A DNA stretch of 64,000 bases from Candidatus Cloacimonadota bacterium (lineage in GTDB: Bacteria > Cloacimonadota > Cloacimonadia > Cloacimonadales > JAJBBL01): assembly GCA_019429305.1 (NCBI GenBank), contig JAHYIR010000003.1, positions 9,852 through 73,851 of the forward strand. Reading direction: 5' to 3'. The notes beneath the pieces were generated by a model. The model saw only the letters and a program-made list of their open reading frames with translations, had not been told where the DNA came from and searched no databases. A program made the position numbers and the translations under genes. Positions 24,119 through 45,652 of this stretch are shown here, piece by piece (the stretch's first letter is position 1; every line of letters starts with the position of its first letter).

Positions 24119-24576
24119 GTCAAAGTGGGATAAATGTCTGCTTCCCTGAAATAGGGGAGAGGAAAGTCCGGGCACCAAAGGGCGGGATACTTCCTAACGG
24201 GAAGCTCTGGTGACGGAGAGCTAGCTCCACAGAAACAAACCGCCCTTCACTATTTTAACTTTGTTGGTGATTGTTTACGATGATAACTTGAAATGCTAAA
24301 ATGGTGAAGGGTAAGGGTGAAATGGTAGTGTAAGAGACTACCGGATATATTGGTGACAATATATGCCAGGAATGCCTTATTCGGTGCAATGCTAAATAGG
24401 AGAACAGTGCCTCGTGCCGTATGTCTGCCCGGCATACTTTGTTCTCGGGTGAGCAGCTAAAACCGGTTTGGGAAACCAAATCTCCTTAAGGGGAATAGTA
24501 ATATCCGGTTCAGACAAATAGACATTGTTCTGTTTATTAAACAGAATACAGAACCCGGCTTATTTCCCTCTTTGAC
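24119..24576 (+). ncRNA. rnpB: RNase P RNA, bacterial type A
   Basis: Conserved GAGGAAAGTCCGGGC near the 5' end, GGGTAAGGGTGAAATGGTAGTGTAAGAGACTACC core, and ACAGAACCCGGCTTA near the 3' end. The terminal P1 pairing is GTCAAAGTGGGATAAA with TTATTTCCCTCTTTGAC. Confidence 0.85.
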
Positions 24577-24632
24577 ATCAAATTTTGATTTCTCTTGACT
24601 TCTCAAGAGAAGTATTATTTTTACACTTATGA

Positions 24633-24709
<77 letters not shown>

Positions 24710-24821
24710 TTTTTATAGACACTATTTTTGATGATGAAAACCAATCTCAATATACTCTCAATAAGAGAACAACATAATAAATTTTATCATTAAATTGTCT
24801 TTATCCAATCAATAAGAAGCA

Positions 24822-24849
24822 CACGAGTCGGCTACCGCCGACTCGTGTA
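24822..24849. repeat. Perfect 12-bp stem GC-rich hairpin (acacgagtcggc-tacc-gccgactcgtgt)
   Basis: Read directly from the sequence. It shares the AGTCGG...CCGACT core with the hairpin at 46769-46815. Confidence 0.6.
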
Positions 24850-25016
24850 CTCCCCTTAGGTTTCTCATACTTAAAACCAATTCAAAAAGAAGATCACTGA
24901 CTTTAGTTTTGTTTTGGTTACTGGAAAAAGTTATTGCAGTATTGAGGAAAAAGCCGAAGAATCTTCATTAAATACATAAAAATCCTTTCTGCCATCCCGA
25001 GTTTCTCAGTATTTAC

Positions 25017-25261
25017 GTAGTTTCACCACACTGTCACTCTAAGTAACCCTTGGTTCTTAGGTAGTTTCAATACATTGTCACCCTGAGTGATTCCAGGCAA
25101 ACTACTTGCTCTATCTTTCTGGAATTGTATCGAAGGGTTGAAGAATAGCACAACCATATCGACACAAGCCCTCCTTCGATACATTCTGCCGGATAAAGCA
25201 AGAAGCCATTGCAGAACACTCAGGATGACAATGGGTGGCGTATAACTTAGGATGACAATGG
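25017..25261. repeat. Cluster of four TTGTCAYCCTRAG-type repeat units: two forward, two inverted
   Basis: Forward units are at 25017-25046 and 25061-25090 (gtagtttca..tgtcac.ct.agt.a). Inverted units are at 25217-25234 and 25244-25261 (..ct.aggatgacaatgg). Confidence 0.65.
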
Positions 25262-25391
25262 ATAGTAAATCACGATGTTGATGATTATTGACCATAAACA
25301 GACTAATGCCTATCTTACAAAACGGATAGAAGATAATAGGGTTTTCAGTTTATTGTAATAAATGGTAAGAAATCATTATTCCTGAAAAAAG

Positions 25392-25425: not shown

Positions 25426-26283
25426 ATGATTGAACAGAGTAAGGTATTTCATTCTTCCGGAACTATTTCATCTATTGGGAAAAGAATCCCTTGTGGTGAA
25501 TTTAAACAAATTCATTCCATATTCGATAGAAATATCAATTTTCTTTATAATGATCTGATAGTTAGTCTATCTAACATTAAATCTTATGAAGGGGTCTTGA
25601 GATTAGTCATACCAAATCTTGAGCTGCATAAGATCAAGGCAATAGAACATTATCCGGGGAAGATCATCATTAACGGGAATGAGATTTTTAATTATATAGA
25701 AGAGAATATTTACGATCCTTTTTTACCCCAGATGTATCTCAGATCAAATTCCATATCATCAGACCTAACTGATCTAAAAGCAAAATATTTAGCTAAGGAT
25801 AAGCAATATACACTGGCTTATCTTCTTAACAAAGATAATGTACCAATACCGGAAAGATCTTCTTATGACAGTGAGTTTATGAAACAGATGAACCGAGCTT
25901 TCAGAGCACTTAAAGATGGTAACTATCCTCTTGCTGTACAGGGTTTTAAGGGAAGGGGTTACGGACTAACTCCATCGGGAGATGATTTTTTAATCGGTTA
26001 TCTGATTGGATTGAGTTTCCGAGAGTATTTAGGAGACAGAGCCGTAACTGATTTGAAACAGGAGATTTATAGACTTGCTCTCGGAAGCAATCCGTTGGTA
26101 AATACTTTTCTTTTTGAAGCAGTGAACGGCTATTGTAATTCTTACTGGAAATCGTTCCTCACCAAGTTGATTAGGGGTACAGGAGATGTTGTGGTTGATT
26201 TTGAAGCAATTTTATCGGAGGGTGAGACTTCCGGTTATGATATGATGGCAGGATTCCTAACCTGTTTTGAAATAGAGATTTAA
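25426..26283 (+). CDS. DUF2877-family protein (YlbF/AllH-like)
   Basis: GRGYGLTPSGDDFLIGYLIGL matches the DUF2877 signature as I recall it. It lies directly upstream of an FdrA homolog. Confidence 0.65.
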   Translation: MIEQSKVFHSSGTISSIGKRIPCGEFKQIHSIFDRNINFLYNDLIVSLSNIKSYEGVLRLVIPNLELHKIKAIEHYPGKIIINGNEIFNYIEENIYDPFLPQMYLRSNSISSDLTDLKAKYLAKDKQYTLAYLLNKDNVPIPERSSYDSEFMKQMNRAFRALKDGNYPLAVQGFKGRGYGLTPSGDDFLIGYLIGLSFREYLGDRAVTDLKQEIYRLALGSNPLVNTFLFEAVNGYCNSYWKSFLTKLIRGTGDVVVDFEAILSEGETSGYDMMAGFLTCFEIEI

Positions 26284-26292
26284 GGTGAATTT

Positions 26293-27840
26293 ATGGCAGT
26301 AGTTAGTATAGTGATCAACAATCGTTATCTCGATTCGGTGAAATTGATGCAGATCTCGGAAAAGATCAAAGAGAAAGAGGGTGTGACTGATGCCTTAGCG
26401 GTAGTGGCAACAAAAGAGAACAAGTCGATTCTTAAAGCTGTCGGAATGCTAACGGAAGAGTTTGATCAGGCAACCGGTTCGGATATTTGTTTGGCTATTA
26501 AAGCAGAAACTGAGGAGTTAGCTAACGATCTATTAAAAGAGGCAATAGCATGGATCAAGAAAGGGCTACCCGGAGAGAAGAGAGCAGCAGAAGAAGATCA
26601 TCAGCCCCGATCTCTGGAAAGTGCTCTGAAAATAATGCCTGATGCAGATCTGGTATTGATCTCTGTAGCCGGAAGGTATGCTGGCAGAGAGGCAAGAAAA
26701 GCTCTGGAGAATGGCAAACATGTTCTGCTCTTCTCTGACAATGTATCTATTGAAGATGAAAGGGAGCTGAAAGAGTATGCGGTTGCTCATGATCTGTTGA
26801 TGATGGGTCCGGGCTGTGGTACGGCAATAATCAATAATATACCCTTGGCTTTTGCCAATAGTATCAGACTGGGCAAGATCGGGATAGTATCTGCTGCCGG
26901 GACTGGCTTGCAAGAAGTGAGTTCGATCATCCATAATCTGGGGCAGGGTATTTCGCAGGCATTCGGTACAGGTGGTCGTGACGGCAAGAAAGAGATCAGT
27001 GGTTTGATGATGCAATACTGCCTGCAATACTTGATCAACGATCCACAGACAGAAGTAATCGTCTTGATCAGCAAACTGCCTGATGATGAGGTGATAGATA
27101 AGATATGGAAACTCGCCAAAACTACCGAGAAACCGATAGTTATAAATTATCTTAAGTTAATTACTATACCTAAGTTAGACAATATATATGTCACGGAAAC
27201 TCTGTCGGATACAGCTGTTGTTGCTTGCCGGTTACTAACCGGAGAGGAGATAAAAGAGAGTGATGTTGAATTACCAGTACTTTTATCATCTATCAAATTA
27301 CCGGATAACAGATCAAGAAAATATCTGCGAGGATTGTATAGTGGCGGGACCTTATGCTATGAAGCGCAGAATATCTTTTATAAAAGATTGGGTAGATATG
27401 CCTTTAGTAATGCTCCACTCCATCCTGATGCAAAATTGACAGATGTTTGGCAAAGTAAGGAACACACTATGATTGATCTCGGAGAAGAGGAGTTTACAGT
27501 GGGAAGACCACATCCGATGATAGATTATTCCTTAAGAATCAAGAAACTCAAAGAGGAGAGTCATGATCCTGAAACGGCAGTAATTTTGTTTGATGTAGTT
27601 CTCGGTTATGGTTCTCATCCTCATCCAGAAAAGGAGTTAGCACCAATAATCAAGGAGGTCAAGCAGGAGAGCGGTTTTCCTGTAATATGTTCGGTGATAG
27701 GGACAGATGAAGACCCTCAGAATCGGCAGAACATTATCAGAACCTTACAAGATAGCGGAGCAATTGTAAGGCAAACCAATGCAGAAGCAGTTGAACTGGC
27801 AGTTGGGATTATAAAGCGTATCTTGAATGATATAGAGTAA
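26293..27840 (+). CDS. FdrA-family acyl-CoA synthetase-like protein (AllF-like)
   Basis: N-terminal block YLDSVKLMQISEKIKEKEGVTDALAVVATKENKSILK is typical of FdrA. The central CoA-ligase alpha-like region has GPGCGTAII and SAAGTGLQE. 515 aa. Confidence 0.8.
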   Translation: MAVVSIVINNRYLDSVKLMQISEKIKEKEGVTDALAVVATKENKSILKAVGMLTEEFDQATGSDICLAIKAETEELANDLLKEAIAWIKKGLPGEKRAAEEDHQPRSLESALKIMPDADLVLISVAGRYAGREARKALENGKHVLLFSDNVSIEDERELKEYAVAHDLLMMGPGCGTAIINNIPLAFANSIRLGKIGIVSAAGTGLQEVSSIIHNLGQGISQAFGTGGRDGKKEISGLMMQYCLQYLINDPQTEVIVLISKLPDDEVIDKIWKLAKTTEKPIVINYLKLITIPKLDNIYVTETLSDTAVVACRLLTGEEIKESDVELPVLLSSIKLPDNRSRKYLRGLYSGGTLCYEAQNIFYKRLGRYAFSNAPLHPDAKLTDVWQSKEHTMIDLGEEEFTVGRPHPMIDYSLRIKKLKEESHDPETAVILFDVVLGYGSHPHPEKELAPIIKEVKQESGFPVICSVIGTDEDPQNRQNIIRTLQDSGAIVRQTNAEAVELAVGIIKRILNDIE

Positions 27841-27841
27841 A

Positions 27842-27912
27842 GTGTCACCTTTTGATACATTCTGCTGCAAGAGGAACAAGAAATAGTCAGCAGAACACTC
27901 AGGATAACAATT
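27842..27912. repeat. Partial copy of the TTGTCAYC-family repeat inserted between the fdrA-like and ylbE-like genes
   Basis: gatacattctgc and gcagaacactcaggat.acaat blocks are shared with 25178-25233. Confidence 0.6.
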
Positions 27913-28029
27913 ATTCGTAACATAGACTTCAGTCTGTGTATTTGGACAAGGTTAAAAGGAACGAAGAAGTTGTTATGAAAACAGATTAGTAACTCAGTAT
28001 ATAAAAATAACCAGTTAAAGGGAAAACTT

Positions 28030-29424
28030 ATGAAATTACGGGAAGGAAAACTTAAGGTGATCAATCTGGGGTTGGAGCAATTTGGCAAAGATCTGAAAGA
28101 GCAGAATGTAGAGACAATTCAGGTTAATTGGTCACCACCATTAGAAATAGACTCTTCCATCATGCAGATAATAGCGCATCATCAGGAAGAGATCGATCAA
28201 GCTAATGAGAAGGCATTAGATATCATCCAAAAGGGGCAACCGGTTCTTTTAGGACTCGATATAGCACGTAATGTGATACCCGGAATGCAGGAGAATATGA
28301 TACTTCATGCCGGTCCCCCTATCCAATGGGATAGAATGTGCGGACCGATGAGGGGAGCTATCATCGGAGCTTTGATCTATGAGGGGAAAGCCGCTACCAA
28401 GGAAGAGGCAGAGAATTTAGCTAAGTCAGGGGAGATAGAATATGCACCCTGTCATGAGCATAATGCTGTTGGACCTATGGCGGGAATAATCTCACCTTCG
28501 ATGCCGGTATTTATCATAAAAAACGATACTTATGGTAACGAAGCTTATTGTACTCAGAATGAAGGGCTGGGGAAGGTTCTCCGTTACGGTGCCTATCAAT
28601 CGGAAGTGATCGAGAAACTGAAATGGATGGAAAAGGTACTATATCCGATATTAGATAAAGCGATCAGGTCGTTGGGCAAGATAGATCTAAAGAATCTTAT
28701 CTCACAAGCTTTACACATGGGTGATGAAGTACATAATCGTAACCGTGCCGGAACTTCTCTATTGATCAGGCAACTAGCACCGGCTATTCTGAAAACATCT
28801 GAAAACGTGACTGACTCTGCTAAGGTACTGGAATTTATCAATAGTAACGATCACTTTTTCCTGAACCTCTCAATGCCTGCTGCCAAATGCATGCTTGATG
28901 CCGCTTCTAATATAGTTCCGAGCAGTATAGTAATAGCTATGGCTCGTAATGGTACGGATTTTGGTATTCGTTTAGCCGGTACGGGGAACAAATGGTTTAC
29001 CGGCAAAGCCCTCATTCCTGATGCCCTCTTTTTCCCCGGCTATACAAAGGAAGATGCCAATCCCGATATTGGGGACAGCACAATTACAGAGACTGCAGGA
29101 TTGGGTGGATTTGCTATTGCAGCTGCTTTTGCCATAGCTCAATTTGTCGGTGGCACTGCAGCAGATGCCAAAAGATATACGAATCTGATGTATGAGATAA
29201 CAGCAACGGAAAGTGAAAATTTTCAAATACCGGCTCTTGACTTTCGCGGAACACCGTTAGGTATAGATGTGCGAAAAGTAATAGAAAAGAATTTGACCCC
29301 GTTTTTAGATACCGGAGTGGCTCATAAACAACCGGGTATCGGACAGGTCGGAGCGGGGGTGCTGAGTGCACCAACAGAGCCGTTTATTAATGCTATTAAA
29401 GGTTTAGCTAAAGTGTTGGAATAA
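28030..29424 (+). CDS. DUF1116-family protein (YlbE/AllG-like)
   Basis: 464 aa. Its size and position after FdrA match the fdrA-ylbE pairing. The family assignment is from memory of DUF1116 features. Confidence 0.65.
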   Translation: MKLREGKLKVINLGLEQFGKDLKEQNVETIQVNWSPPLEIDSSIMQIIAHHQEEIDQANEKALDIIQKGQPVLLGLDIARNVIPGMQENMILHAGPPIQWDRMCGPMRGAIIGALIYEGKAATKEEAENLAKSGEIEYAPCHEHNAVGPMAGIISPSMPVFIIKNDTYGNEAYCTQNEGLGKVLRYGAYQSEVIEKLKWMEKVLYPILDKAIRSLGKIDLKNLISQALHMGDEVHNRNRAGTSLLIRQLAPAILKTSENVTDSAKVLEFINSNDHFFLNLSMPAAKCMLDAASNIVPSSIVIAMARNGTDFGIRLAGTGNKWFTGKALIPDALFFPGYTKEDANPDIGDSTITETAGLGGFAIAAAFAIAQFVGGTAADAKRYTNLMYEITATESENFQIPALDFRGTPLGIDVRKVIEKNLTPFLDTGVAHKQPGIGQVGAGVLSAPTEPFINAIKGLAKVLE

Positions 29425-29521
29425 TTGACAGGCAATGAAAATTTCAGTAAATTGTTATTCTGAGAGAAATATTGAGTTGTTAACAGGTTAGAGAGATTAT
29501 TATAAACAAAGGAGTAAAGTT

Positions 29522-30334
29522 ATGAACACACAAGAATTACTACAATTTATGAACAGTGTAAAAATGCATGATCTTACCCAGAGATTAAGCGTTCATACAC
29601 CACCATGGCCATCTTATATGCCGTTGGGAATTCAATATTTCAAACGAATTGCCGGTGCACATATGGGACAGGGAGCCAATGGGCAGATCATCACTACCAG
29701 TAACCATGTCGGAACCCATATTGATGGTGAGATCCATTTTTATGCTAATGGCAGGACGGTAGGTGATGTTCCTATCGAAGAGTGGGTAGGACCCGGTGTA
29801 GTTGTTGATATTTCTGATTCTGTTGGTGATTATGACCTCTATTCGCCTGATCTGCTGATGTCCAAGATCGAGGTCAAGAAAGGGGATATTCTGATCATCA
29901 ATACCGGTTATCACAAATATGGATGGGACCAACCCGAATCTGACGAAATCAAGTATTTTGTTAAGCATCCGGGACCAGACCCTTCTTTTCACGAATGGGC
30001 ATTAGATATGCAGGTCAAATGGATCGGGGTAGATTGCGGTAGTGCAGATCATCCAATGAATACGATCATTCGCGATTGGCATCCCAAACCGTTCAAAGAG
30101 GCGGAAAAGAAGCTAAAAGCAAAATATGGCAAGAGTTGGGATGAATTCTTTCCACCCGAAGAGTATTATCAGGTCATGCATCTCAAACTCTTCCCCAAGA
30201 AGCTGGTACATGCTGAAAATCTTGGTGGTGATATTGACAAAATAAGTAATAAACGAGTATGGATCGGCCTCTTTCCCTTGAGAGGTATTGAACTGGAATC
30301 TTCTATGTGCCGTATTATTGCTTTAGAGCCCTGA
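29522..30334 (+). CDS. Cyclase-family metal-dependent hydrolase (kynurenine formamidase/isatin hydrolase-like)
   Basis: HVGTHIDGEIHF fits the cyclase-family HxGTHxDxxxH motif. 270 aa. AAGGAG RBS upstream. Confidence 0.75.
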   Translation: MNTQELLQFMNSVKMHDLTQRLSVHTPPWPSYMPLGIQYFKRIAGAHMGQGANGQIITTSNHVGTHIDGEIHFYANGRTVGDVPIEEWVGPGVVVDISDSVGDYDLYSPDLLMSKIEVKKGDILIINTGYHKYGWDQPESDEIKYFVKHPGPDPSFHEWALDMQVKWIGVDCGSADHPMNTIIRDWHPKPFKEAEKKLKAKYGKSWDEFFPPEEYYQVMHLKLFPKKLVHAENLGGDIDKISNKRVWIGLFPLRGIELESSMCRIIALEP

Positions 30335-30361
30335 TTGATTCAAAATATTGGAGATTAGAAC

Positions 30362-30515
30362 TTGTCATCTCGACTGGAGAAAAATCACGAAGTGATTATT
30401 TCAAAACGGAGAGATCTCATTCCTGACTTAGTTAAAACTACACAAAATCATGCTTGTTTTTCCAGTCTCCGTGATGAGATGTCTCGACTACGCTTCACTT
30501 CGCTCGACATGACAA
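30362..30515. repeat. MITE-like 154-bp element with terminal inverted repeats TTGTCATCTCGA / TCGACATGACAA
   Basis: The left end ttgtcatctcgac (30362-30374) and right end ctcgacatgacaa (30503-30515) are complementary at 11 of 12 positions. Internal hairpin aatcac-gaa-gtgatt. The 78-aa ORF over it reads like translated repeat (SRLRFTSLDMT). Confidence 0.6.
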
Positions 30516-30624
30516 AAAAAAGGAAATGTTTCTTCGTGGCTGCATCCGAGTTTAACGTAGTCAATTACTCAGGGCGACGGAGTAGCATACCGATATAGAA
30601 GAACAAACTTATAAGAGGAATAAA

Positions 30625-31518
30625 ATGTCCATAACAAACGATTTCGAATACTATTGTCCGTCATCTTTAGACGAAACAGTAAAACTGCTGGAACAATTAG
30701 GTGAACAAGCTGCCTTATTGGCAGGAGGAACAGATCTGATCGTCAATATCAAAGATGATCTGGAATCACCATCGGCAGTAATTGATATCAAGAGAGTATC
30801 CGAATTGAGAGGACTTGATATTGATAAAGATAAGCTTTTTATTGGCGCTAAAACAACTTTTACTGATATTTTGGACTCTTCAGTTATTAAGGATAATTAT
30901 CTACTGCTTTGGGAATCTGCCAGAGCTGTTGCCTCAGTAGGGATACGGAACAGAGCAACCTTAGTCGGTAATATCTGCTCAGCCGTACCCTGTATGGATT
31001 CAGCTCCCGCTCTCTTATGTTATGATGCAATAGTTCATACAGTAAGCAAGACAGGGAAAAGGGATATACCGATCAACGACTGGTTCATAGCACCACGAAA
31101 AACTGCCCGTAAAGCGGATGAGCTCGTTGTGGGAGTTACTGTTCCTTTACCATCTCAGAAGAACAGCGGTTGTTACATCAAACTCGGAAGATATGGTGGT
31201 GAAGATTTAGCTCAAGCTGGATTAGGGATCTTGATCAGAGCAGATCTCGAATACCGGATTGCCTTTACTGCAGTAGGTCCCATTCCTATCCGTGCCCAGA
31301 AGATCGAAGAACTACTCAAAGGGAAAGAGATCGATCAGGATCTACTGAAACAGGCAAAGGAACTCGTTGCCGAAGAAATCAGTCCTATCACCGATATCCG
31401 TTCTACACGTGAGTATAGAGAACATATCTGTCGGGTAATGTTTGAAAGGGGTCTGATTGTTTGTCAACAGCGAATGAACGGAGAGATTATCAATACGGTA
31501 AGGATCTTGGGAGGTTAA
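30625..31518 (+). CDS. Xanthine dehydrogenase-family molybdenum hydroxylase, FAD-binding (medium) subunit
   Basis: ALLAGGTDLIVNIK, the CODH-type FAD-binding layout, and the C-terminal ITDIRSTREYR block. 297 aa. Confidence 0.85.
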   Translation: MSITNDFEYYCPSSLDETVKLLEQLGEQAALLAGGTDLIVNIKDDLESPSAVIDIKRVSELRGLDIDKDKLFIGAKTTFTDILDSSVIKDNYLLLWESARAVASVGIRNRATLVGNICSAVPCMDSAPALLCYDAIVHTVSKTGKRDIPINDWFIAPRKTARKADELVVGVTVPLPSQKNSGCYIKLGRYGGEDLAQAGLGILIRADLEYRIAFTAVGPIPIRAQKIEELLKGKEIDQDLLKQAKELVAEEISPITDIRSTREYREHICRVMFERGLIVCQQRMNGEIINTVRILGG

Positions 31519-31519
31519 G

Positions 31520-31984
31520 ATGAAGGAGATTACTTTTATACTCAATAATGAAAAGCGATCTGTTCAGGTCGAACCTTCTGAAACTCTGTTGGAGGTCTTA
31601 CGCGACAAGATGGGTCTGAAAAGTCCCAAATGTGGTTGTGATAGGGGAGATTGTGGTGCCTGTGTGGTTTTGCTGAATGGGAAAAGTGTTCGTAGCTGTC
31701 TTGTCTTGGCTATTGAAACTGCCGGAATGGAGATAATGACACTGGAAGGAATATCTGCAAAGAATCTCAATGCATTACAGGAGGCATTTATCGCCTTCAA
31801 TTCCTTTCAATGCGGATATTGTGCACCGGGGATAATTATCACCGTTACCGAACTCCTCACCAAAAACCCTAAACCAGATCTGGAAGAGATCAAAGAAGTG
31901 CTCTCGGGCAATCTCTGCCGTTGTACCGGCTATAAACCTATCTTTGATGCCATCTTAGACGTCACAGGAAAGGAGGTGAAATGA
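31520..31984 (+). CDS. Molybdenum hydroxylase [2Fe-2S] (small) subunit
   Basis: CGCDRGDCGACVV plus CGYCAPG and CRCTGY cluster motifs. 154 aa. Confidence 0.9.
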   Translation: MKEITFILNNEKRSVQVEPSETLLEVLRDKMGLKSPKCGCDRGDCGACVVLLNGKSVRSCLVLAIETAGMEIMTLEGISAKNLNALQEAFIAFNSFQCGYCAPGIIITVTELLTKNPKPDLEEIKEVLSGNLCRCTGYKPIFDAILDVTGKEVK

Positions 31985-34329
31985 GCGACTATAAATATAT
32001 CGGCAAACCTGTAGTCCGGATAGATGGCAAAGAGAAGGTGTCTGGAGCTGCTATCTTCACAGACGATATTGATTTTGGCGCTAATTTGCTGCATGCTCAT
32101 ATTATATGCAGCACGGAAGCTCATGCTCTTATCAAATCGATAGATACTTCAGAAGCATTAAAGGTCAAGGATGTGGTGAATATCTTTACCGGTAAGGATT
32201 TTCCCTTTAAGTTCGGGCTCTATATGAAAGACCGTTATGTTCTTGCTCAGGAGAAGGTCCGTTTTGTTGGGGAACAAGTTGTAGCAGTAGTAGCACGAAC
32301 TCCTCAAGCAGCCAGAAAAGCTGCCAAACTGGTCAAGATAGAATACGAACCGCTGCCTGCTGTATTTAATCAACTGGATGCTATGAAAGATGATGCTGTT
32401 TTACTGCATCCTGACCTGGATAAATATCCTCATGTACCTTGGTTCTTTCCCCAGGAAAAGACTAATATAGCTCATTGGCGTAAGACCCGTAAAGGTGATA
32501 TGGAGAAAGCTTTTGCTGAAGCGGATATAGTTTTGGAAGATACCTATTATGTGCCCCGTTATGCCCATTGTGCTTTGGAAACCCATGTTGCAATAGCAAA
32601 ATATGATTATTCGGGCAGATTAACCGTCTGGAGTTCTTCCCAGTCACCACATACGCAGAGAAATCTCTTTGCCGAAGCTCTATCCTCTTTGGGATTAACC
32701 CATAAAGATGTCAGGGTCATTGCTCCTCATGTTGGTGGTGGTTTTGGCGGTAAAGCGGGGGTAACAATGGAAATAATACCGGCTGCTATAGCTACAAAGT
32801 TACCCGGTTATGCAGTAAAATTGCGTTGGTCAAGAGAACAGGAGTTCATGAATACTTATCAGCGGCTCGGCCTAGTAGCCAAGATCAAGATGGGTGCCAA
32901 GAAAGACGGAACAATAACAGCGATAGATCATAAGATCTATTGGGATGCCGGAGCATATGTCGAGTATGGTGCCAATGTCGTTAATGCTGTAGGGCTTTCC
33001 GCTATCGGACCGTATCGAATACCCAATGTTTCTATCGATTCGATCTGTATTTATACAAACCTGCCGCCGGGAGGTCCTTATCGTGGTTTTGGCTATTCGG
33101 AATTCATCTTTGGTCTGGAATCTCACGTTAATCGTATCGCCAACAAACTGAATATCGACCCGGTAGATTTCCGCAGAATAAATGCTATTAAAGAGGGTGA
33201 TACTACAGCTTACGGAGCAGAAATGAATCCTAGCGGGTTACATCAGGCAATAGATGAAGTAGCTAAAGCTATAGAATGGGACAAAAATAGAGAGTCCAAA
33301 GATCCCAAGAAAGCAATCGGTAAGGGGTTTGCTATTTTTTGGAAAGCACCTGCTATGCCGCCTAATGCCAGTTCTTCAGCATTTTTAAAGTTCAATGAGG
33401 ATGGAAGTATCAATCTGCTCATCTCGGGTATGGATATAGGACAGGGTTATCAGACGGTAATGGCTCAGATTGCTGCCGAAGTATTGGGAGTTCCACCTTC
33501 CAAGATAAGAGTAGAAAATCCCGATACAGACCGTAATCCTTACGAATGGCAAACAGTAGCATCCCATGTAACTTGGGGTTGTGGTAATGCGGTGAAAAAG
33601 GCAGCCATAGATGCCAGAGACCAGATCTTTGCTCTTATAGAAAGGGTTTATCATCTCTCTCAGGATTCTTTGTATCTGGAGGATGAAGCGGTAAAATGCC
33701 ACACCAAGAAGGATTTTTATTTACCACTCAAAGATTTTGTCATTAATGGTATCATGACCGAAGATGGAACCTTTAAGGGGGGTCCGATAAATGCCAGAGG
33801 TGTCTTTATGCCTGAATTCTCGTCAACAAAGGGAGATCCGGAAACAAGCCAGGGTGGGCATCCGAATGTACATTATACAGTAGGAGCTGGAGCTCTGATC
33901 CTGGAAATAGATAAAGAGACGGGAAAAATGAGAGTTCTCAAGGCAGCAGAAGCCATAGATGCCGGTAAAGCAATAAATCCCGATCTTGTTAAAGGGCAGA
34001 TCACAGGTGGACTCTTACAAGGGCTGGCAACGGTTCTCTATGAAGATATGCGATTTGATAAGGGAGGGAAAATGCTGAATCCGAACTTTTCCGATTATAA
34101 GATCCCAACCTCTATGGATGTTCCCGATGAGATCATCCCGATTATCATAGAAGTTCCACAACCTGATGGACCTTATGGTGCTAGAGGAATTGGAGAACAT
34201 ACAATGTTACCGGCAGCTCCAATGATAGCTAATGCTCTGGAAGATGCACTCGGGATCAGGATCAAGAGCATGCCAATCACCGCCGAGAAAGTAGCATTGA
34301 CCCTATTAGATAAAGAAAAGGAGAAATAA
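31981..34329 (+). CDS. Molybdenum hydroxylase molybdopterin-binding (large) subunit
   Basis: HVGGGFGGK, GGPYRGFG and the C-terminal GIGEHTMLPAAPMIANAL (catalytic Glu context). 782 aa. Overlaps the small-subunit gene (ATGA). Confidence 0.9.
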   Translation: MSDYKYIGKPVVRIDGKEKVSGAAIFTDDIDFGANLLHAHIICSTEAHALIKSIDTSEALKVKDVVNIFTGKDFPFKFGLYMKDRYVLAQEKVRFVGEQVVAVVARTPQAARKAAKLVKIEYEPLPAVFNQLDAMKDDAVLLHPDLDKYPHVPWFFPQEKTNIAHWRKTRKGDMEKAFAEADIVLEDTYYVPRYAHCALETHVAIAKYDYSGRLTVWSSSQSPHTQRNLFAEALSSLGLTHKDVRVIAPHVGGGFGGKAGVTMEIIPAAIATKLPGYAVKLRWSREQEFMNTYQRLGLVAKIKMGAKKDGTITAIDHKIYWDAGAYVEYGANVVNAVGLSAIGPYRIPNVSIDSICIYTNLPPGGPYRGFGYSEFIFGLESHVNRIANKLNIDPVDFRRINAIKEGDTTAYGAEMNPSGLHQAIDEVAKAIEWDKNRESKDPKKAIGKGFAIFWKAPAMPPNASSSAFLKFNEDGSINLLISGMDIGQGYQTVMAQIAAEVLGVPPSKIRVENPDTDRNPYEWQTVASHVTWGCGNAVKKAAIDARDQIFALIERVYHLSQDSLYLEDEAVKCHTKKDFYLPLKDFVINGIMTEDGTFKGGPINARGVFMPEFSSTKGDPETSQGGHPNVHYTVGAGALILEIDKETGKMRVLKAAEAIDAGKAINPDLVKGQITGGLLQGLATVLYEDMRFDKGGKMLNPNFSDYKIPTSMDVPDEIIPIIIEVPQPDGPYGARGIGEHTMLPAAPMIANALEDALGIRIKSMPITAEKVALTLLDKEKEK

Positions 34330-35519
34330 TGTCTAAACCGTTAGAGAATGTTCGTGTTTTGGACTTAACTAGAGTTTTGGCAGGTCCTTTTTGCACAATG
34401 GTATTGAGCGATCTGGGTGCTGAGATAGTGAAGGTCGAAATACCCGGAAAAGGGGACGACTCGCGTGCCTTTGGTCCCTTTCATGAACATAGAAGTCTTT
34501 ATTTCATCAGCATAAATCGTGGCAAGAAGAGCATTTCTCTCAATCTGAAGCATCCCCGAGGGAATAAGATCTTATTAGATCTAATTCCTCACTTTGATGT
34601 GATCATAGAGAACTTTCGACCAAGGACAATGGAAAAACTCGGTTTAGGTTATGAAGTACTGAAAGAACTCAATCCTCGACTTATTTATGCAGCTTCTTCC
34701 GGATTCGGACATACAGGACCATATTCACCTCTCCCTGCTTATGATATTCTTGTACAGGCAATGGGTGGCATCATGAGTATTACCGGCTGGAAAGACACAC
34801 CACCCACAAGAGTAGGAATGTCTTTAGGAGATATTACTGCTTCACTCTTTACTGCTATCGGAGTAACTTCGGCACTTTATGGAAGAGAGAAGAGCGGATT
34901 AGGAGAGAAGATAGATATTGCTATGCTGGACTGTCAGGTAGCAATTCTGGAAAATGCTATGTTGAGATTACAGGCAGAAGGTAAAAGTCCTGAGCCGATA
35001 GGTAATCGTCATCCTACAATTTCTCCCTTTCAGGCATATAAGGGATCAGATGAGTACTTTGTTCTTGCTATCGGAAATGATTCTCTCTGGAGTATATTCT
35101 GTCAGGCAATCCAAAAGCCGGAACTATTGGAAGATCAGCGGTTTAAAAGCAATAAATTTAGAACAGAGCATCTTAAAGAGCTCAATGCAATACTGGAGCC
35201 GATATTTATTTCCAAAACTGCTCAAGAGTGGCTTGATTTATTTGCCCAAACTCATATCCCAAGTGCTCCTATTAACGATATTAACAAAGTTATGCAAGAT
35301 CCTCAGGTCAATGCCCGTAACATGATATTAGAGGTTGAAGATGAAATAGCCGGAAAAGTAAAAATTGCCGGTAATCCTATAAAGATGAAATCTATATCTG
35401 AAAGTCAAACTCGCCCTAAAGCTCCGGAAATAGGTGAACATAACAAGGAAATATATACCAGTTTATTAGAACTGACTACTGAAGAACTTGAAGAATTGAA
35501 AAATGAAGGAGTAATCTAA
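34329..35519 (+). CDS. Family III CoA-transferase (CaiB/BaiF/Frc family)
   Basis: N-terminal VRVLDLTRVLAGPFCTMVLSDLGAEIVKVE. 396 aa. The start overlaps the stop of the Mo subunit. Confidence 0.85.
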   Translation: MSKPLENVRVLDLTRVLAGPFCTMVLSDLGAEIVKVEIPGKGDDSRAFGPFHEHRSLYFISINRGKKSISLNLKHPRGNKILLDLIPHFDVIIENFRPRTMEKLGLGYEVLKELNPRLIYAASSGFGHTGPYSPLPAYDILVQAMGGIMSITGWKDTPPTRVGMSLGDITASLFTAIGVTSALYGREKSGLGEKIDIAMLDCQVAILENAMLRLQAEGKSPEPIGNRHPTISPFQAYKGSDEYFVLAIGNDSLWSIFCQAIQKPELLEDQRFKSNKFRTEHLKELNAILEPIFISKTAQEWLDLFAQTHIPSAPINDINKVMQDPQVNARNMILEVEDEIAGKVKIAGNPIKMKSISESQTRPKAPEIGEHNKEIYTSLLELTTEELEELKNEGVI

Positions 35520-35521
35520 AG

Positions 35522-36823
35522 ATGTACTATTCTCCGATATCTTTGAAGAATCTTGCCCATGATCTGAGAAGTGGCAAACTGCCTCTGTCGGATTATATCG
35601 AACAGACCTTAAGAAGAATGGAAGAGATTGAGCCGATAATACACTCATTTATACCAGAAGAAAAGAGGGATATTCGACTGCTATTCGAAGCAAAAGCACT
35701 TTTAGAGAGATATCCTGATCCCTATGAGAGACCACCTCTTTTTGGCGTTTTAGTTGGAGTTAAAGATATAATAAATGTAGATCGTCTTCAAACTTTAGCA
35801 GGGTCAAAACTACCACCGGAAGTTTTTCAAGGAGAAGAGGCAGATATCGTAACTATTTTGAAAAGTGCCGGAGCTATTATTTTAGGTAAAACAGTTTGTA
35901 CCGAGTTTGCATACTTTCAACCGGGAGAAACGACTAATCCTCATAATCCCAAACATACACCGGGAGGGTCAAGTAGTGGTTCTGCCGCAGCAGTAGCTGC
36001 CGGCATATCTCCATTGACGGTTGGTACTCAAACCATTGCATCTGTTATCAGACCTGCTGCCTATTGCGGTGTTGTTGGATTCAAACCGAGTTATGGCAGA
36101 GTATCCATGTGCGGAGTTTTTCCGTTAGCTAAATCGGCAGATCATCTTGGCTTTTTTACAGCGGATGTTGAGAGTATGAAGTTAGTGGTCAGATCGGTTA
36201 TTAGTAATTGGCACAAAATTACTGCTAAGAAAAAACCACTTCTCGCTATTCCCGCTTCTGAATTTCTCAATCAGGCAGAACCGGCTACTCTACAATCATT
36301 TAATAGAACTCTCAAACTTTTTACCAAAGCCGGATTTGAGATACGTGCTACGACACTCTTTAAGAATATCGAACTGATCAACGAACTGCATCAAGAATTA
36401 CTTGCTGCAGAATTTGCTGTGCAACATCATGAAATCTTTTGGGAGCATTTTAAACTCTATTCAGAACATTCTAAAAGTCTATATAAGAAAGGACTTCATA
36501 TCAGAGCGGAAAAAGTAAAAGCAATACGTGAACAGCAACTCATAATGCGCTACGAGGTTACGGAAAAGATGGAAGAAAAAGGGATAGACCTTTTGTTAAC
36601 TCCAGCAGCTACACGATCTGCTCCCTTAGGACTAAATTCAACCGGTAGTCCGTTAATGAGTCTTCCCTGGACTTTTGCCGGTTTACCATCAATCACTATT
36701 CCTTCAGATAATAACAGAAAAGGGTTACCTTTAGGTCTGCAACTTATCGCTCCTTATGGAGAGGACGAGAATCTTCTTGCCTATGCCAAAGTACTTAACG
36801 AGATAATAAATTGCAGCGTATAA
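35522..36823 (+). CDS. Amidase-signature family amidase
   Basis: GGSSSGSAAAVAAG signature and VGVKDII (catalytic Lys context). 433 aa. Starts 2 nt after the CoA-transferase stop. Confidence 0.85.
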   Translation: MYYSPISLKNLAHDLRSGKLPLSDYIEQTLRRMEEIEPIIHSFIPEEKRDIRLLFEAKALLERYPDPYERPPLFGVLVGVKDIINVDRLQTLAGSKLPPEVFQGEEADIVTILKSAGAIILGKTVCTEFAYFQPGETTNPHNPKHTPGGSSSGSAAAVAAGISPLTVGTQTIASVIRPAAYCGVVGFKPSYGRVSMCGVFPLAKSADHLGFFTADVESMKLVVRSVISNWHKITAKKKPLLAIPASEFLNQAEPATLQSFNRTLKLFTKAGFEIRATTLFKNIELINELHQELLAAEFAVQHHEIFWEHFKLYSEHSKSLYKKGLHIRAEKVKAIREQQLIMRYEVTEKMEEKGIDLLLTPAATRSAPLGLNSTGSPLMSLPWTFAGLPSITIPSDNNRKGLPLGLQLIAPYGEDENLLAYAKVLNEIINCSV

Positions 36824-36873: not shown

Positions 36874-38874
36874 CTATTTGATCAACACCATCTTCCTTAT
36901 TTCTGAATGATCTTCTGTAGTTAATATATAGAAATAGACTCCACTACCAACAACTCTGTTATTGCTATCTGTTCCATCCCAGGATACTTGATGTTCACCG
37001 ATGGTCATAATGTCATCTACCAGTGTGTTGACGAGTTGCCCTTTGATATTATAGATTGACAGAGTAACTTTTTCAGTTTGGAGCAGATTGAAACGGATAG
37101 TAGTTATTGGGTTGAAAGGATTGGGATAATTAGAGTAGAGTCTGTTTTGTACAGGATGTGCTAAATTATCTTCATCATTACTCTGATAATCCTGATAATC
37201 AAAAAACAGAAAGTGAATTCTAGCTGTATCCGGGTCGAGAAATTCTATTAGCTGTGTCGGGTAAAGATATGCCGGTATTATACCCTCTAATTCCGCTTGA
37301 TAATGATCGCTTTCAGGATAAGTGCTTAAAATATGCTGGTTATCAGGTAACCATGTTTGTCCGTAATCTCTGGTATGCATAATGTAAATATCAGAGTTAT
37401 TTTCATTATAGATACTCTCTTGAAAGACCACAAAAAAATCACTATTCTTATGAGATACACGGACATAATTCTCAGTCTCAAAATCTTCCTCATTAGATGT
37501 CCAGACAGGCCATGAGTAGGTCATTATTAAGTTACCATCGTTATCATATTCCCATTCTCCATCTCCTTCCGGATCCCAAGGCAGATAAGGTTGAGCAGAG
37601 GGGTTATCACTACGGGGATGTACATCTGATATTGTGAATTCTCCTGTGTCGAATGAGAAGTTGAGAAATTTCACATATCCCTGATCAGGAAAGAAATCAT
37701 CACCTCGTCCAGCTGATAGACGGTATATGCAGCTAAAAACTACAGTTTCCATATCGGTTACAACAGCACTAAATCGTGGAGCAAATGGAACCAGATACAA
37801 ATTATCATAAGGAATACCAACATCATTAGTGAAATAATCATCAGGATTTTCAACAGGTATGTTAGCTTCCTGCAGATACAAATCCCAATCTTCTTCTGAA
37901 CTTCCTTCACCATAATTCGTGTTTACCAGTACAAATAGGACATCATTATCACTGTAACCTTCAACCCAATTAGGATCATTATAAGTACCCCAATCATAAA
38001 GAGTACCTGTGATAATAACCTTGCCCGAATCAGAGACAGTGAAATCACTATAAGCCCTAATACCCTGCATTGCCCAATCACGCATGTAGGGGACTTCATA
38101 ATGAGTCCAATCATTTGCACTGTAGTTTGACAAGTCACTGGGATGAGAAAAATCTACATAAGCGAGATAAGCGTTATAACTGGGGTTTAGGTTTCCTATC
38201 TCATGGTTATTAAAGCCCACAACATAGACTCTTTTCATTCCGGGATTGGGTGAAGGACCGATCTTGACGACAGGATAGATATATTCTTCACCAAGAACCG
38301 GATTATCAATGACAACAGAGGCACTTTCCCATAAACCAGGAATCCCGATCAGGTCATATTGATCGAAAGAGAAACAGATTACTCTCTCCTGATCAATATT
38401 AGCATAAGGGCTATGCCAGACAACAAATGGATCTCCGGTTTCCATATCCATATCTATGGTAGGAAACCCATCAGGTCCTGCACCGCCAAGATATATCAAA
38501 GAAGGACCAGAAACTATATAGCCATCTTGTAGATATGCATAGCTGATTCTTTTAGCACTGCCTTGTGCAGGGGCTGCTTGATAAATAACATATATTCCGC
38601 CACCATTGTGAATTCCTGCAGGTTGTGGTTGTTTTATGAGCGGATAAGAAGTGTGTCCTCCCGGGAAATAACCATAATAGGAATATCCCAAGCCGATGGG
38701 ACCATAAACAATTTGATAATTTTGGCGAGCATCCCTTGATAATAATGGGAAATCAATCGCCATATACAAAATAGAGCCACCGGTATTATAACTGTACTGT
38801 TCAACGGGCTGGCTCCATAATTCAATACACCCTAAACTTAATGAAAGCAGGATGAAAAGAGCAAATTTTTTCAT
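36874..38874 (-). CDS. Secreted protein with a T9SS-type C-terminal sorting domain
   Basis: Signal peptide MKKFALFILLSLSLGC. The C-terminal ~80 aa NYPNPFNPITTIRFNL...LSIYNIKGQLV...GVYFYIL is typical of Por/T9SS (FlgD-Ig-like) tails. Confidence 0.7.
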   Translation of the reverse strand: MKKFALFILLSLSLGCIELWSQPVEQYSYNTGGSILYMAIDFPLLSRDARQNYQIVYGPIGLGYSYYGYFPGGHTSYPLIKQPQPAGIHNGGGIYVIYQAAPAQGSAKRISYAYLQDGYIVSGPSLIYLGGAGPDGFPTIDMDMETGDPFVVWHSPYANIDQERVICFSFDQYDLIGIPGLWESASVVIDNPVLGEEYIYPVVKIGPSPNPGMKRVYVVGFNNHEIGNLNPSYNAYLAYVDFSHPSDLSNYSANDWTHYEVPYMRDWAMQGIRAYSDFTVSDSGKVIITGTLYDWGTYNDPNWVEGYSDNDVLFVLVNTNYGEGSSEEDWDLYLQEANIPVENPDDYFTNDVGIPYDNLYLVPFAPRFSAVVTDMETVVFSCIYRLSAGRGDDFFPDQGYVKFLNFSFDTGEFTISDVHPRSDNPSAQPYLPWDPEGDGEWEYDNDGNLIMTYSWPVWTSNEEDFETENYVRVSHKNSDFFVVFQESIYNENNSDIYIMHTRDYGQTWLPDNQHILSTYPESDHYQAELEGIIPAYLYPTQLIEFLDPDTARIHFLFFDYQDYQSNDEDNLAHPVQNRLYSNYPNPFNPITTIRFNLLQTEKVTLSIYNIKGQLVNTLVDDIMTIGEHQVSWDGTDSNNRVVGSGVYFYILTTEDHSEIRKMVLIK

Positions 38875-38947
38875 TTTTCTCTCCTTCCCTTTTGGGTTTT
38901 TGTTTTTCTTGTTTCGCGAAATGATTATTCTTACTGATACACCTTCT

Positions 38948-41044: not shown

Positions 41045-41383
41045 TTTTCCCTCCGAAAAGCTATTGGTTGCTTTCTCATTATTTATACACATGCTATGGT
41101 CAAAAAGTCAAGTAGTTTTTTTAACCATAGTAGAAAGATCGTCGATGTTGGGTATTGTATCTATAAGAGATGAAGTGATTAAGAATAAGTAATGAAATGT
41201 GCTTAATTTTTTAGCTAAGATTAGGTTTGATAGACAAAAAAATCAAGGAATAAAGGATTTTAAAAGCTACTCCCATAACCCATCAGAGATAAAAGCTTTA
41301 TGTAATGAATAGGTTTAAAAAAACCTTGCAATGATTTTCAGATTGGAAAAGATGTCACAAAATTGTGTAAATGGAGAGCTTAT

Positions 41384-43839: not shown

Positions 43840-44450
43840 AGTATTACTTTAAGCTTGGGGCAATTCTTTTTCTAATAGCAGCTGTAGCCAGTGGAGTTTT
43901 GGCTTTTGTGAACAATTTTACCAGACCTATCATTGAGGAGAATCAACGGAGAGCCGAAGATGAAGCGAGACGTGAAGTATTACCGGAAGCAGCTGTATTC
44001 AAGTTAATGAATACTGAATACCCCTTCTATGTCGGTTTTGATAATGAGAAAAACATTGCAGGATATACCTTCATAGCTGAAGAGATGGGGTATAGCGGAG
44101 TTATACAGACTATGGTCGGTGTTGATCCTAATATGAGAATAACTAATATAAAGGTGATCAAACAATCGGAAACTCCCGGTCTGGGTGCAAATTGTGTCAG
44201 ACCTGAATTTACCAATCAATTCTGCAATTTAGCTTTGGAAGAGCTGGTACTCGATAAAGACAGCGGCTCAATAGTAACAATAACCGGTGCTACCATTACG
44301 ACCCGGGCATTGACCAGCTCTTTGCAAAAGGCAATAAAAGGAGTTTCAGAAGAGCTGAGAAATCTTCCCGAGATAAGTTACAGCGATCTTATCGAGGATG
44401 AAGCAGAGTTTGTCAAAGAGGAACAACCAAGTGCTGAGGAGGTTGAATGA
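43836..44450 (+). CDS. rnfG: Rnf complex subunit G
   Basis: N-terminal anchor and FMN-binding block [14 protein letters not shown] overlap with rnfD. Confidence 0.85.
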
Positions 44451-45043
44451 GCTTGATAAAGGAAATGACCAAAGGTTTCGTTAAAGAGAATCCGGTTTTC
44501 ATTATGGCATTGGGTCTTTGTCCTGTGCTAGCAGTTTCTACTTCGATAGAGAATGCTATCGGAATGGGTTTGGCAGCAACCTTTGTTCTGCTCTGTTCCA
44601 ACATCCTGATTTCCCTCTTAAAAGATGTCATCCCGACTAAGGTTCGTATCCCCTGTTTCATTGTCGTTATTGCCTCTTTTGTAACTATCGTCGATATGTT
44701 GATGAATGCCTATACACCGGAAATTCATAAAAATCTCGGCATTTTTATCCCACTTATTGTGGTTAACTGTATCATTCTTGGCAGAGCAGAGGCATTTGCC
44801 AGTCGGAATAGTCTTTTTAAATCAATTTTTGACGGTTTGGGAATGGGTATAGGTTTTACTTTGGCACTTGTATTAGTTGCCTTTTTCAGAGAATTGCTCG
44901 GTGCAGGTCAACTTTTAGGAATCCAGATCTTACCGGTTTCTTACCAACCGGTTCTATTAGCAATCCTTGCTCCCGGAGCATTTCTAACGCTCGGCTTACT
45001 TATGGGAGCATTAAATCTCTTCAAGAAAAAAGAAGTAGAGTGA
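44447..45043 (+). CDS. rnfE: Rnf complex subunit E
   Basis: [17 protein letters not shown] and [14 protein letters not shown] blocks typical of RnfE/NqrD. Confidence 0.9.
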
Positions 45044-45060
45044 GATTAGGAGAGTATTAG

Positions 45061-45639: not shown

Positions 45640-45652
45640 GAGGAAAAAATAG

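Follow-up and report, generated by a model that had tools for sequence, protein, structure and literature searches.

In this work we describe a cluster of nine genes, located at positions 25426-36823 of a 64-kb stretch of DNA from Candidatus Cloacimonadota bacterium (hereafter the window, to whose positions the coordinates refer), which, judging from its gene content and from that of related loci, probably encodes a variant of the oxidative pyrimidine pathway that works without oxygen and by phosphorolysis. The cluster comprises, in this order, genes for AllH-, FdrA/AllF- and AllG-like proteins (the AllFGH-like trio), a cyclase-family metal hydrolase, the FAD, [2Fe-2S] and molybdopterin (Mo) subunits of a molybdenum hydroxylase of the xanthine dehydrogenase (XDH) family, a family III CoA-transferase and an amidase-signature amidase. 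Pyrimidine catabolism is usually described as following the reductive, Rut and URC routes. To our knowledge, the oxidative route, which passes through barbiturate, is seen as a rarity of a few aerobic actinomycetes, and only the barbiturase has been firmly tied to a gene. In Rhodococcus erythropolis JCM3132 this pathway consists of uracil/thymine dehydrogenase (EC 1.17.99.4), barbiturase (EC 3.5.2.1) and ureidomalonase (EC 3.5.1.95). This strain, JCM3132, served to establish both growth on pyrimidines and the pathway through barbiturase (PMC3961730). In the literature searchable as full text, which covers few subscription journals, we found no account of the cluster, of a uracil dehydrogenase at the gene level, or of a phosphorolytic or anaerobic barbiturate route; an earlier note on this DNA, made from the sequence alone, had likewise known of no characterized cluster of this composition, and no published description was found that would contradict it.

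Conserved gene order and the ring-opening step

The comparison of related loci provides the evidence on which the barbiturate reading is built. A conservation survey with the Mo subunit as query, restricted to one genome per species, returned 52 loci, in 50 of which the relative found is 59-88% identical to the Mo subunit of the window (88% for the closest one). The nine window proteins were mapped onto the returned loci and one further neighbourhood was examined; domains were assigned with Pfam and NCBIfam, the equivalog cut-offs of the latter being used as membership thresholds. In 27 related loci, in the window and in locus L056 the genes follow the order AllH-FdrA-AllG-cyclase-FAD-FeS-Mo; the record titles of these loci name at least 9 phyla and place this order in Cloacimonadota, Bacteroidota, Ignavibacteria, Zixibacteriota, Spirochaetota, Caldisericota, Bacteriovoracaceae and Acidobacteriota. 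Across these phyla the Mo subunits are still 66-88% identical, a degree of conservation between distant hosts that suggests horizontal spread of a strongly constrained enzyme. These data support the view that the cluster is a genuine catabolic unit for an N-heterocycle, with strong co-conservation of its genes.

The conserved core of this unit consists of the first seven genes, and the CoA-transferase and amidase genes form an accessory module that occurs only in loci of Cloacimonadota and Bacteroidota (17 loci, the window and L056). Roughly half of the lineages lack the amidase, and the trio always adjoins a ring-opening enzyme. Eleven other loci carry an alternative module, composed of a protein family that we call f9, an SCP-x-type thiolase-like protein and a DUF35/ChsH2 protein, and the two modules were never found together in one locus. 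Of the gene association that the earlier note had put forward for survey across genomes, the combination of the AllFGH-like trio with a Mo hydroxylase stood, being present in the same order in dozens of loci from many phyla, and the link to the CoA-transferase and the amidase held only in Cloacimonadota and Bacteroidota.

The distribution of the ring-opening enzyme is the most informative feature of these loci. The cyclase is encoded in every non-actinomycete locus with the core and is absent from all five Actinomycetota loci (L022, L025, L027, L033 and L042), whose Mo subunits are ~70% identical to that of the window. All five carry, on the same strand and just upstream of allH, a gene for a ring-opening amidohydrolase of the AtzD/TrzD family, and no protein of this type (PF09663, barbiturase/cyanuric acid hydrolase) was found in the window or in any non-actinomycete locus. 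The actinomycete protein is 67-68% identical to the solved Rhodococcus barbiturase, which it matches with 514 bits (5hwe) versus at most 310 bits for cyanuric acid hydrolases, and it has Asn, as in barbiturase, at the position of Arg188 of the Azorhizobium cyanuric acid hydrolase, a residue whose role in the latter enzyme has been described (PMC4051656). The gene scores above the NCBIfam cut-off for AtzD; its assignment as a cyanuric acid hydrolase was rejected on the strength of the difference in bits and of the barbiturase-type Asn. Both enzymes are selective, since barbiturase is inactive on cyanuric acid and cyanuric acid hydrolases are inactive on barbiturate (PMC4051656), and the product of barbiturase is 3-oxo-3-ureidopropanoate, that is, ureidomalonate (PMC3758960). 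The mutual exclusion of cyclase and barbiturase across loci is the pattern expected for the non-orthologous replacement of one step. Therefore, the replacement of the cyclase by barbiturase in Actinomycetota points to barbiturate as an intermediate, in which case the Mo hydroxylase would make barbiturate and the AllFGH-like trio would act on ureidomalonate. As far as we know, C6 of uracil is the only natural CH beside a ring nitrogen that would give barbiturate.

The cyclase of the window carries the metal-binding motif HVGTHIDGEIH, which follows the family pattern HxGTHxDxxxH, and the motif HVGTHIDGEIHF, named in the earlier note, was found in this protein. Among solved structures it is closest to kynurenine formamidase and to isatin hydrolase, the second of them a lactam-opening enzyme, at only 24-44 bits, and it scores 51 bits with the arylformamidase equivalog TIGR03035, for which the cut-off is 223. 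Two loci of Caldisericota (L030 and L036) encode three cyclase-family paralogues, which have 77-78%, 46-49% and 53-54% identity to the cyclase of the window, and AllG is encoded between the first and the second of them.

Some further observations concern the alternative module and isolated members of the cluster. The f9, thiolase-like and DUF35 module was noted in L011, L021, L022, L025, L027, L028, L033, L042 and L047, and f9 alone in L008, L030, L036 and L048. The f9 protein, of ~245 amino acids (aa), has conserved RRGxRxGA and HELGG stretches and gave no match with Pfam, NCBIfam or PDB profiles; the DUF35/ChsH2 protein is of the Zn-ribbon/OB type. In Bacteroidetes bacterium GWA2_30_7 (L057 and L058) there is a lone AllG gene, whose product is 71% identical to that of the window, with none of the other cluster genes within 10 kb.

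The hydroxylase, the AllFGH-like trio and the accessory enzymes

The putative hydroxylase has the general features of the XDH family, namely a FAD subunit, a subunit with two [2Fe-2S] clusters, a molybdenum cofactor subunit and the catalytic Glu motif GIGEH. Its matches to the XDH equivalogs of NCBIfam remain below their cut-offs (XdhA, 524 bits vs 780; XdhB, 204 vs 310; XdhC, 163 vs 217), as do those of the FAD and Mo subunits to all NCBIfam equivalogs, including 4-hydroxybenzoyl-CoA reductase (4-HBCR) alpha (517 vs 995 bits) and beta (118 vs 405). Among solved structures, the best relative of the Mo subunit is 4-HBCR alpha (341 bits), followed by CO dehydrogenases (~260), XDH (238), quinoline oxidoreductase (232) and nicotinate dehydrogenase (230 bits). 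The beta (FAD) subunit of 4-HBCR carries an Fe-S-binding insertion; the FAD subunit of the window has 297 aa and is without such a Cys-rich insertion. At the positions that we take to form the xanthine-binding motif, based on the bovine enzyme (Glu802 in GGFGGKE, and Arg880), the Mo subunit reads GGGFGGKAG, with Ala at that of Glu802, and has Ala or Val, and no Arg, nine residues before YRIPN, the position of Arg880. Since the catalytic Glu is kept and the xanthine-binding Glu and Arg are not, the protein is predicted to be a hydroxylase and not a xanthine enzyme. The Mo subunit is only ~28% identical to those of the Rhodococcus and Embleya barbiturase clusters described below, so that two XDH-family lineages were apparently recruited to barbiturate clusters.

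The trio has a characterized counterpart in Escherichia coli. Experiments have shown AllFGH to be a carbamoyltransferase with an N-acylurea as substrate, and in vitro it interconverts oxalurate with oxamate and carbamoyl phosphate (PMC11326118). The same three protein families (FdrA, DUF1116 and DUF2877) are adjacent in both organisms, and the reaction type that we propose for the window is also phosphorolysis of an N-acylurea to an amide and carbamoyl phosphate. However, the gene order is H-F-G in the window and F-G-H in E. coli, allK and the allantoin genes allECD adjoin the trio in E. coli and not in the window, and the proposed substrate is ureidomalonate (C3) instead of oxalurate (C2). 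Ureidomalonate (-OOC-CH2-CO-NH-CO-NH2) is the one-carbon-longer homologue of oxalurate (-OOC-CO-NH-CO-NH2). Identity to the E. coli proteins is 37% for AllF, 44% for AllG and 29% for AllH, the latter over the C-terminal 126 aa only. The window AllG is identical to a protein of a 'Candidatus Cloacimonetes' metagenome-assembled genome at NCBI. The C-terminal tail of E. coli AllF is missing from the FdrA protein of the window, and residues 8-36 of the window AllG (28030-28140) align to residues ~511-539 of E. coli AllF (34% over 29 aa, E = 7e-07). The presence of the AllF tail at the N-terminus of AllG reflects a shifted subunit boundary and fits the occurrence of both proteins in one complex.

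Similar chemistry is found in other systems. In the reductive uric acid pathway of anaerobes, the carbamoyltransferase YgeW and the carbamate kinase YqeA also cleave a ureido group phosphorolytically to carbamoyl phosphate and thereby support ATP formation, although this pathway uses unrelated enzymes, starts from a purine and proceeds by reduction instead of hydroxylation (PMC12507026). In nitrifiers, allFGHK adjoins biuret genes (PMC12625717). A carbamate kinase (AllK homologue) is absent from the window and from 50 of 51 related loci. The exception is L012, from a metagenome-assembled genome of Draconibacterium orientale (DYQJ01000119.1), where the gene directly after that for the Mo subunit encodes a carbamate kinase homologue with 37% identity to AllK. 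In this locus (3283-7938) the orthologous FAD/FeS/Mo genes stand alone, flanked by housekeeping genes (AdoHcy hydrolase and DPP IV), and the pathway genes are split in this genome.

Barbiturase clusters of cultured actinomycetes offer a second point of comparison. Barbiturase relatives were found with the solved Rhodococcus sequence; the Acidimicrobiia protein as query gave only near-identical Acidimicrobiia proteins. The barbiturase of Rhodococcus qingshengii, which has 99% identity to the solved enzyme, is encoded in a classical cluster (L059 in Table 1) with the order XdhC, PucR, NCS2 permease, carboxyltransferase, family III CoA-transferase, PucR, UPRTase, barbiturase, amidase-signature amidase, aminotransferase, NCS2 permease and a FAD/FeS/Mo trio, genes that are candidates for the orphan uracil/thymine dehydrogenase and ureidomalonase. 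The window shares with this cluster an XDH-family trio, an amidase-signature amidase and a family III CoA-transferase, and with the Rhodococcus pathway the proposed intermediates uracil, barbiturate, ureidomalonate and malonate. In contrast, the NCS2 permeases of Rhodococcus are not in the window, a barbiturase is encoded there and a cyclase-family hydrolase here, the amidases are non-orthologous and the individual proteins are either non-orthologous or only 28-35% identical. Moreover, the ureido group leaves as urea through ureidomalonase in Rhodococcus, whereas it would leave as carbamoyl phosphate through an AllFGH paralogue in the window, and the hosts of window-type clusters are mostly uncultured anaerobes.

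In two other, aerobic actinomycetes, Embleya sp. NBC_00888 (L055, NZ_CP108785.1 2151540-2182628) and Nocardioides anomalus (L060, CP049257.1), a carbamate kinase gene lies immediately upstream of the barbiturase gene. In Embleya, genes for a CoA-transferase and a carboxyltransferase stand beside these two, and a second operon ~8 kb away encodes an NCS2 permease, an XDH-family trio, CoxG and a CN-hydrolase. A CoA-transferase encoded together with a biotin-independent carboxyltransferase is consistent with the conversion of malonate to malonyl-CoA and then to acetyl-CoA and CO2, and not with oxalate chemistry; no carboxyltransferase was found in the window or in the 52 loci. In a metagenome protein of 490 aa (P0328), the C-terminal 123 aa of a carbamate kinase read straight into a full barbiturase; this is a fusion or a missed stop codon, and it shows in either case that the carbamate kinase and barbiturase genes are adjacent.

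The prediction of malonamate and malonate as intermediates was recorded before the searches with the amidase, the permease and the kinase were run. The best solved relative of the window amidase is malonamidase E2 (MAE2) of Bradyrhizobium japonicum (PDB 1ock), at 196 bits (E = 9e-57; next relative, 147 bits) and 36.5% identity over 370 aa. In the alignment to 1ock, the Lys, cis-Ser and Ser-nucleophile positions of the Ser-cisSer-Lys triad are kept, together with the SVIRPAA stretch. This stretch includes, three residues after the nucleophile, the position of Arg158 of MAE2, presumably the residue that binds the substrate carboxylate, which is kept in the window amidase and in 15 of 15 orthologues; the motif GTQT..S..RPA is likewise found in all 15. 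The window protein differs from MAE2 by an N-terminal extension of ~50-70 aa outside the match. Compared with the amidase of the Rhodococcus barbiturase cluster, the likeness is marginal (33% over 143 aa), which rules out the two as orthologues and makes the window enzyme more likely a malonamidase than a ureidomalonase.

The CoA-transferase finds its best match in YfdE (NCBIfam, 394 bits with a cut-off of 522; PDB, 356 bits), with SUGCT also close, and falls below every equivalog cut-off of NCBIfam; it is 34-35% identical to the CoA-transferases of the Rhodococcus, Embleya and Nocardioides barbiturase clusters. It shares the family III fold with YfdE, Frc and SUGCT, nearest relatives that transfer CoA to the short dicarboxylates oxalate, succinate and glutarate, whereas malonate is the acceptor proposed here. 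In five Cloacimonadota loci, and not in the window, an NCS2 permease gene directly follows the amidase gene, and its product scores 359 bits as a uracil permease, 299 bits as RutG and 223 bits as a xanthine permease, all below the equivalog cut-offs.

Gene arrangement and genomic surroundings

The features of the cluster are collected in Table 1. The open reading frame listing, Pfam and NCBIfam agree with the nine same-strand coding sequences that the earlier note had described, both in their order and in their domains. The translational coupling that it had read among the last five genes was also confirmed at all four junctions: TAAgATG with a 1-nt gap between the FAD and [2Fe-2S] genes, ATGA with a 4-nt overlap between the [2Fe-2S] and Mo genes, TAATG with a 1-nt overlap between the Mo and CoA-transferase genes, and TAAagATG with a 2-nt gap between the CoA-transferase and amidase genes. 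Two long intergenic gaps (27841-28029, 190 nt; 30335-30624, 290 nt) interrupt an otherwise tightly packed operon, and neither gave a match in Rfam. The GC content of the cluster is 41.6%, versus 37.6-38.3% in the flanks.

Table 1. Genes of the cluster, with positions in the window, and the classical barbiturase cluster used for comparison, with positions in its own record
Feature	Positions	Strand	Domain or model match
AllH-like (DUF2877) subunit of carbamoyltransferase-like enzyme	25426-26283	+	PF11392, 66.6 bits
FdrA/AllF-like subunit, CoA_binding and Ligase_CoA domains	26293-27840	+	NF004760, 463 bits (cut-off 433)
AllG-like (DUF1116) subunit	28030-29424	+	PF06545, 338 bits
Cyclase-family metal hydrolase, proposed barbiturate ring opener	29522-30334	+	PF04199, 114.5 bits (cut-off 23.1)
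FAD subunit, XDH-family molybdenum hydroxylase	30625-31518	+	PF00941 and PF03450 (FAD_binding_5/CO_deh_flav_C)
[2Fe-2S] subunit, molybdenum hydroxylase	31520-31984	+	PF01799 and PF00111 (Fer2/Fer2_2)
Molybdopterin subunit, proposed uracil (or thymine) C6-hydroxylase	31981-34329	+	PF01315, PF02738, PF20256 (Pfam: Ald_Xan_dh_C/MoCoBD_1/MoCoBD_2)
Family III CoA-transferase, proposed malonate CoA-transferase	34329-35519	+	PF02515 (CoA_transf_3), 410 bits
Amidase-signature amidase, proposed malonamidase	35522-36823	+	PF01425
Classical barbiturase cluster of R. qingshengii (L059, JARVLG010000194.1), ~20 kb	53291-74541		

On the 5' side, the cluster is preceded by housekeeping genes (ychF, ftsK, a lolA-like gene, nadC, RNase P RNA and tRNA-Met). 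The RNase P RNA (class A, 250 bits) lies at 24122-24577, directly upstream of the cluster, followed by tRNA-Met(CAT) at 24633-24709 and by a 15-bp hairpin at 24818-24851. The 716-nt leader before the allH-like gene contains nested inverted repeats at 25013-25268, with arms 127-150 nt apart; the arms CATTGTCACCCTGAGTG and CACTCAGGATGACAATG are 94% complementary, and direct repeats of the arms are also present. These repeats could have a regulatory function or represent a small repeat element. Scans for promoters and terminators were not informative, with 39 promoter-like sites versus 30 expected.

On the 3' side there are two convergent genes for proteins with type IX secretion system (T9SS) tails, rnfCDGEAB, meaB, lon, and glycogen and glycolysis genes. 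The region 36874-46642 holds the two T9SS-tail proteins, both large, and then the complete rnfCDGEAB operon. Some of this region is also present downstream of the cluster in the closest relative, L001, which has one T9SS-tail protein and the beginning of the rnf operon. No regulator or transporter gene adjoins the cluster, and neither a carbamate kinase, nor a carboxyltransferase, nor a decarboxylase was found in the 64-kb window; the earlier note had likewise remarked on the lack of a regulator, transporter, carbamate kinase and oxalyl-CoA decarboxylase.

The proposed route, its alternatives and its significance

Based on the genomic context and on homology, from which every step was drawn, we hypothesize that the cluster acts as follows. 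The Mo hydroxylase would oxidize uracil, and possibly thymine, at C6 with water and an acceptor other than O2, giving barbiturate and 2[H], and the cyclase-family metal hydrolase, in the role of barbiturase, would hydrolyze barbiturate to ureidomalonate. The AllH/FdrA/AllG enzyme would then cleave ureidomalonate with inorganic phosphate into malonamate and carbamoyl phosphate, and a carbamate kinase encoded elsewhere in the genome may use the latter and ADP to form ATP, CO2 and NH3. The malonamidase-E2-like amidase would hydrolyze malonamate to malonate and NH3, and the family III CoA-transferase may convert malonate, with an acyl-CoA, to malonyl-CoA, whose decarboxylation to acetyl-CoA would be catalyzed by an enzyme encoded outside the window. 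Such a route would yield acetate, 2 CO2, 2 NH3, reducing equivalents and substrate-level ATP, which would be a plausible net reaction in syntrophic fermenters like the Cloacimonadota. Thymine could follow the 5-methyl series to methylmalonyl-CoA. The meaB gene is found 10 kb from the cluster, a distance that gives no evidence of linkage to a thymine branch.

Several points weigh against this proposal. All steps are drawn from context and no protein of the cluster has a characterised orthologue: the Mo subunit is without an experimentally anchored one, the cyclase has no close characterised relative (best match, 44 bits), the amidase and malonamidase E2 share no more than 36.5% identity, the only known substrates of AllFGH are oxalurate and oxamate, and YfdE, the nearest characterised relative of the CoA-transferase, uses oxalate. 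The window itself encodes no uracil permease, carbamate kinase or malonyl-CoA decarboxylase. In Embleya and Nocardioides no AllFGH was found within 15 kb of the barbiturase, so that another enzyme must make carbamoyl phosphate there. In addition, the substitution by barbiturase was observed in a single lineage, for which a change of substrate is conceivable, and the f9, thiolase-like and DUF35 module of 11 loci is not accounted for by the proposed steps.

The general logic of the earlier note (Mo hydroxylation, ring opening by the cyclase, AllFGH-like phosphorolysis, amide hydrolysis and activation with CoA) fits all the context evidence, and it is in the carbon skeleton that our reading departs from it. 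In the rival C2 chemistry, of the kind that it had favoured, a heterocycle, which might be five-membered like parabanate or a hydantoin, would be oxidized and opened to an oxalurate-like acid, the trio would be an oxamate carbamoyltransferase, the amidase would form oxalate and the CoA-transferase oxalyl-CoA. The only characterised AllFGH does use oxalurate (PMC11326118), and the CoA-transferase is most like YfdE, an acetyl-CoA:oxalate CoA-transferase; still, its score lies below the YfdE equivalog (394 vs 522 bits), and the trio shares only 29-44% identity with E. coli AllFGH and has neither allK nor allECD beside it. No oxalyl-CoA decarboxylase was noticed in the loci examined, and the actinomycete barbiturase clusters pair the CoA-transferase with a carboxyltransferase and not with a TPP-dependent oxalyl-CoA decarboxylase. 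Together with the barbiturase orthologue that replaces the cyclase in orthologous Actinomycetota loci, the likeness of the amidase to malonamidase E2 and the uracil-type permease, these data favour C3 chemistry. The C2 assignment is probably wrong, and we regard the route to oxalyl-CoA as unlikely; the series ureidomalonate, malonamate and malonate fits better. It is similarly improbable that the amidase is a ureidomalonase, releasing urea and malonate, and that the trio serves elsewhere, for instance as an ADP-forming acyl-CoA synthetase-like enzyme, by which the energy of a CoA thioester would be conserved, or on another N-acylurea. An amidase-signature amidase does directly follow barbiturase in the Rhodococcus cluster, and FdrA has CoA_binding and Ligase_CoA domains of the succinyl-CoA synthetase alpha type. 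However, the window amidase barely resembles that of Rhodococcus and is closer to malonamidase E2, it is not found in roughly half of the lineages, in contrast to the trio with its constant place beside the ring-opening enzyme, and links of carbamate kinase to barbiturase or to the Mo trio recur.

Other substrates would imply different roles for the hydroxylase. If it acted, as 4-HBCR and furoyl-CoA dehydrogenase do, on the CoA thioester of an aromatic or heteroaromatic acid, the CoA-transferase would activate the acid, and the cyclase and the amidase would open the ring; the position of 4-HBCR alpha as the best solved relative of the Mo subunit (341 bits) and the one-base overlap of the CoA-transferase and Mo genes are in line with this idea. 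Nevertheless, the CoA-transferase is absent from loci of Actinomycetota, Ignavibacteria, Spirochaetota, Caldisericota and others, despite ~70% identity of the Mo subunit, the scores are far from the 4-HBCR cut-offs (517 vs 995 bits) and the Fe-S insertion typical of 4-HBCR beta is absent from the FAD subunit. The links to barbiturase, permease and carbamate kinase also misfit a thioester substrate, which makes this explanation very unlikely. We give even less credit to a purine substrate (xanthine, hypoxanthine or urate) that would be hydroxylated and its ureide handled as in allantoin or uric acid fermentation. XdhABC models are among the top NCBIfam matches of all three subunits, and AllFGH is part of purine catabolism in E. 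coli (PMC11326118), but every XDH equivalog is below its cut-off, the equivalents of Glu802 and Arg880 are missing and no allantoin or uric acid genes were found in any locus. Furthermore, the linked permease scores far better as a uracil than as a xanthine permease, and barbiturase, an enzyme of a pyrimidine pathway, is encoded in orthologous loci.

The phosphorolytic barbiturate pathway is thus the reading that we retain for the cluster, and it has consequences of different reach. Whether it amounts to an undescribed fermentative uracil route, widespread in uncultured Cloacimonadota, Bacteroidales, Caldisericota, Zixibacteriota and Spirochaetota, and also in Acidimicrobiia, with three new enzyme functions, is in our judgement evenly balanced. 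The cluster supplies candidates for these functions: a uracil-hydroxylating Mo enzyme, a barbiturate hydrolase non-homologous to the known one and a ureidomalonate phosphorylase. If the route is correct, the Mo subunit would be the first gene assignment for a uracil dehydrogenase lineage, and the cyclase-family enzyme would be a 'barbiturase' unrelated to the Toblerone-fold enzyme. Ureidomalonate and malonamate would become a second substrate class for the AllFGH transcarbamylase family, with substrate-level ATP obtained from a pyrimidine, and the route would offer a physiological source of malonamate for malonamidase-E2-type enzymes. The AllFGH family would be widened from one reaction to a class of N-acylurea phosphorylases, which fits the linkage of allFGHK to biuret genes (PMC12625717). 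Finally, an oxygen-independent, ATP-yielding barbiturate route would be common in the uncultured anaerobes of digesters, sediments and groundwater.

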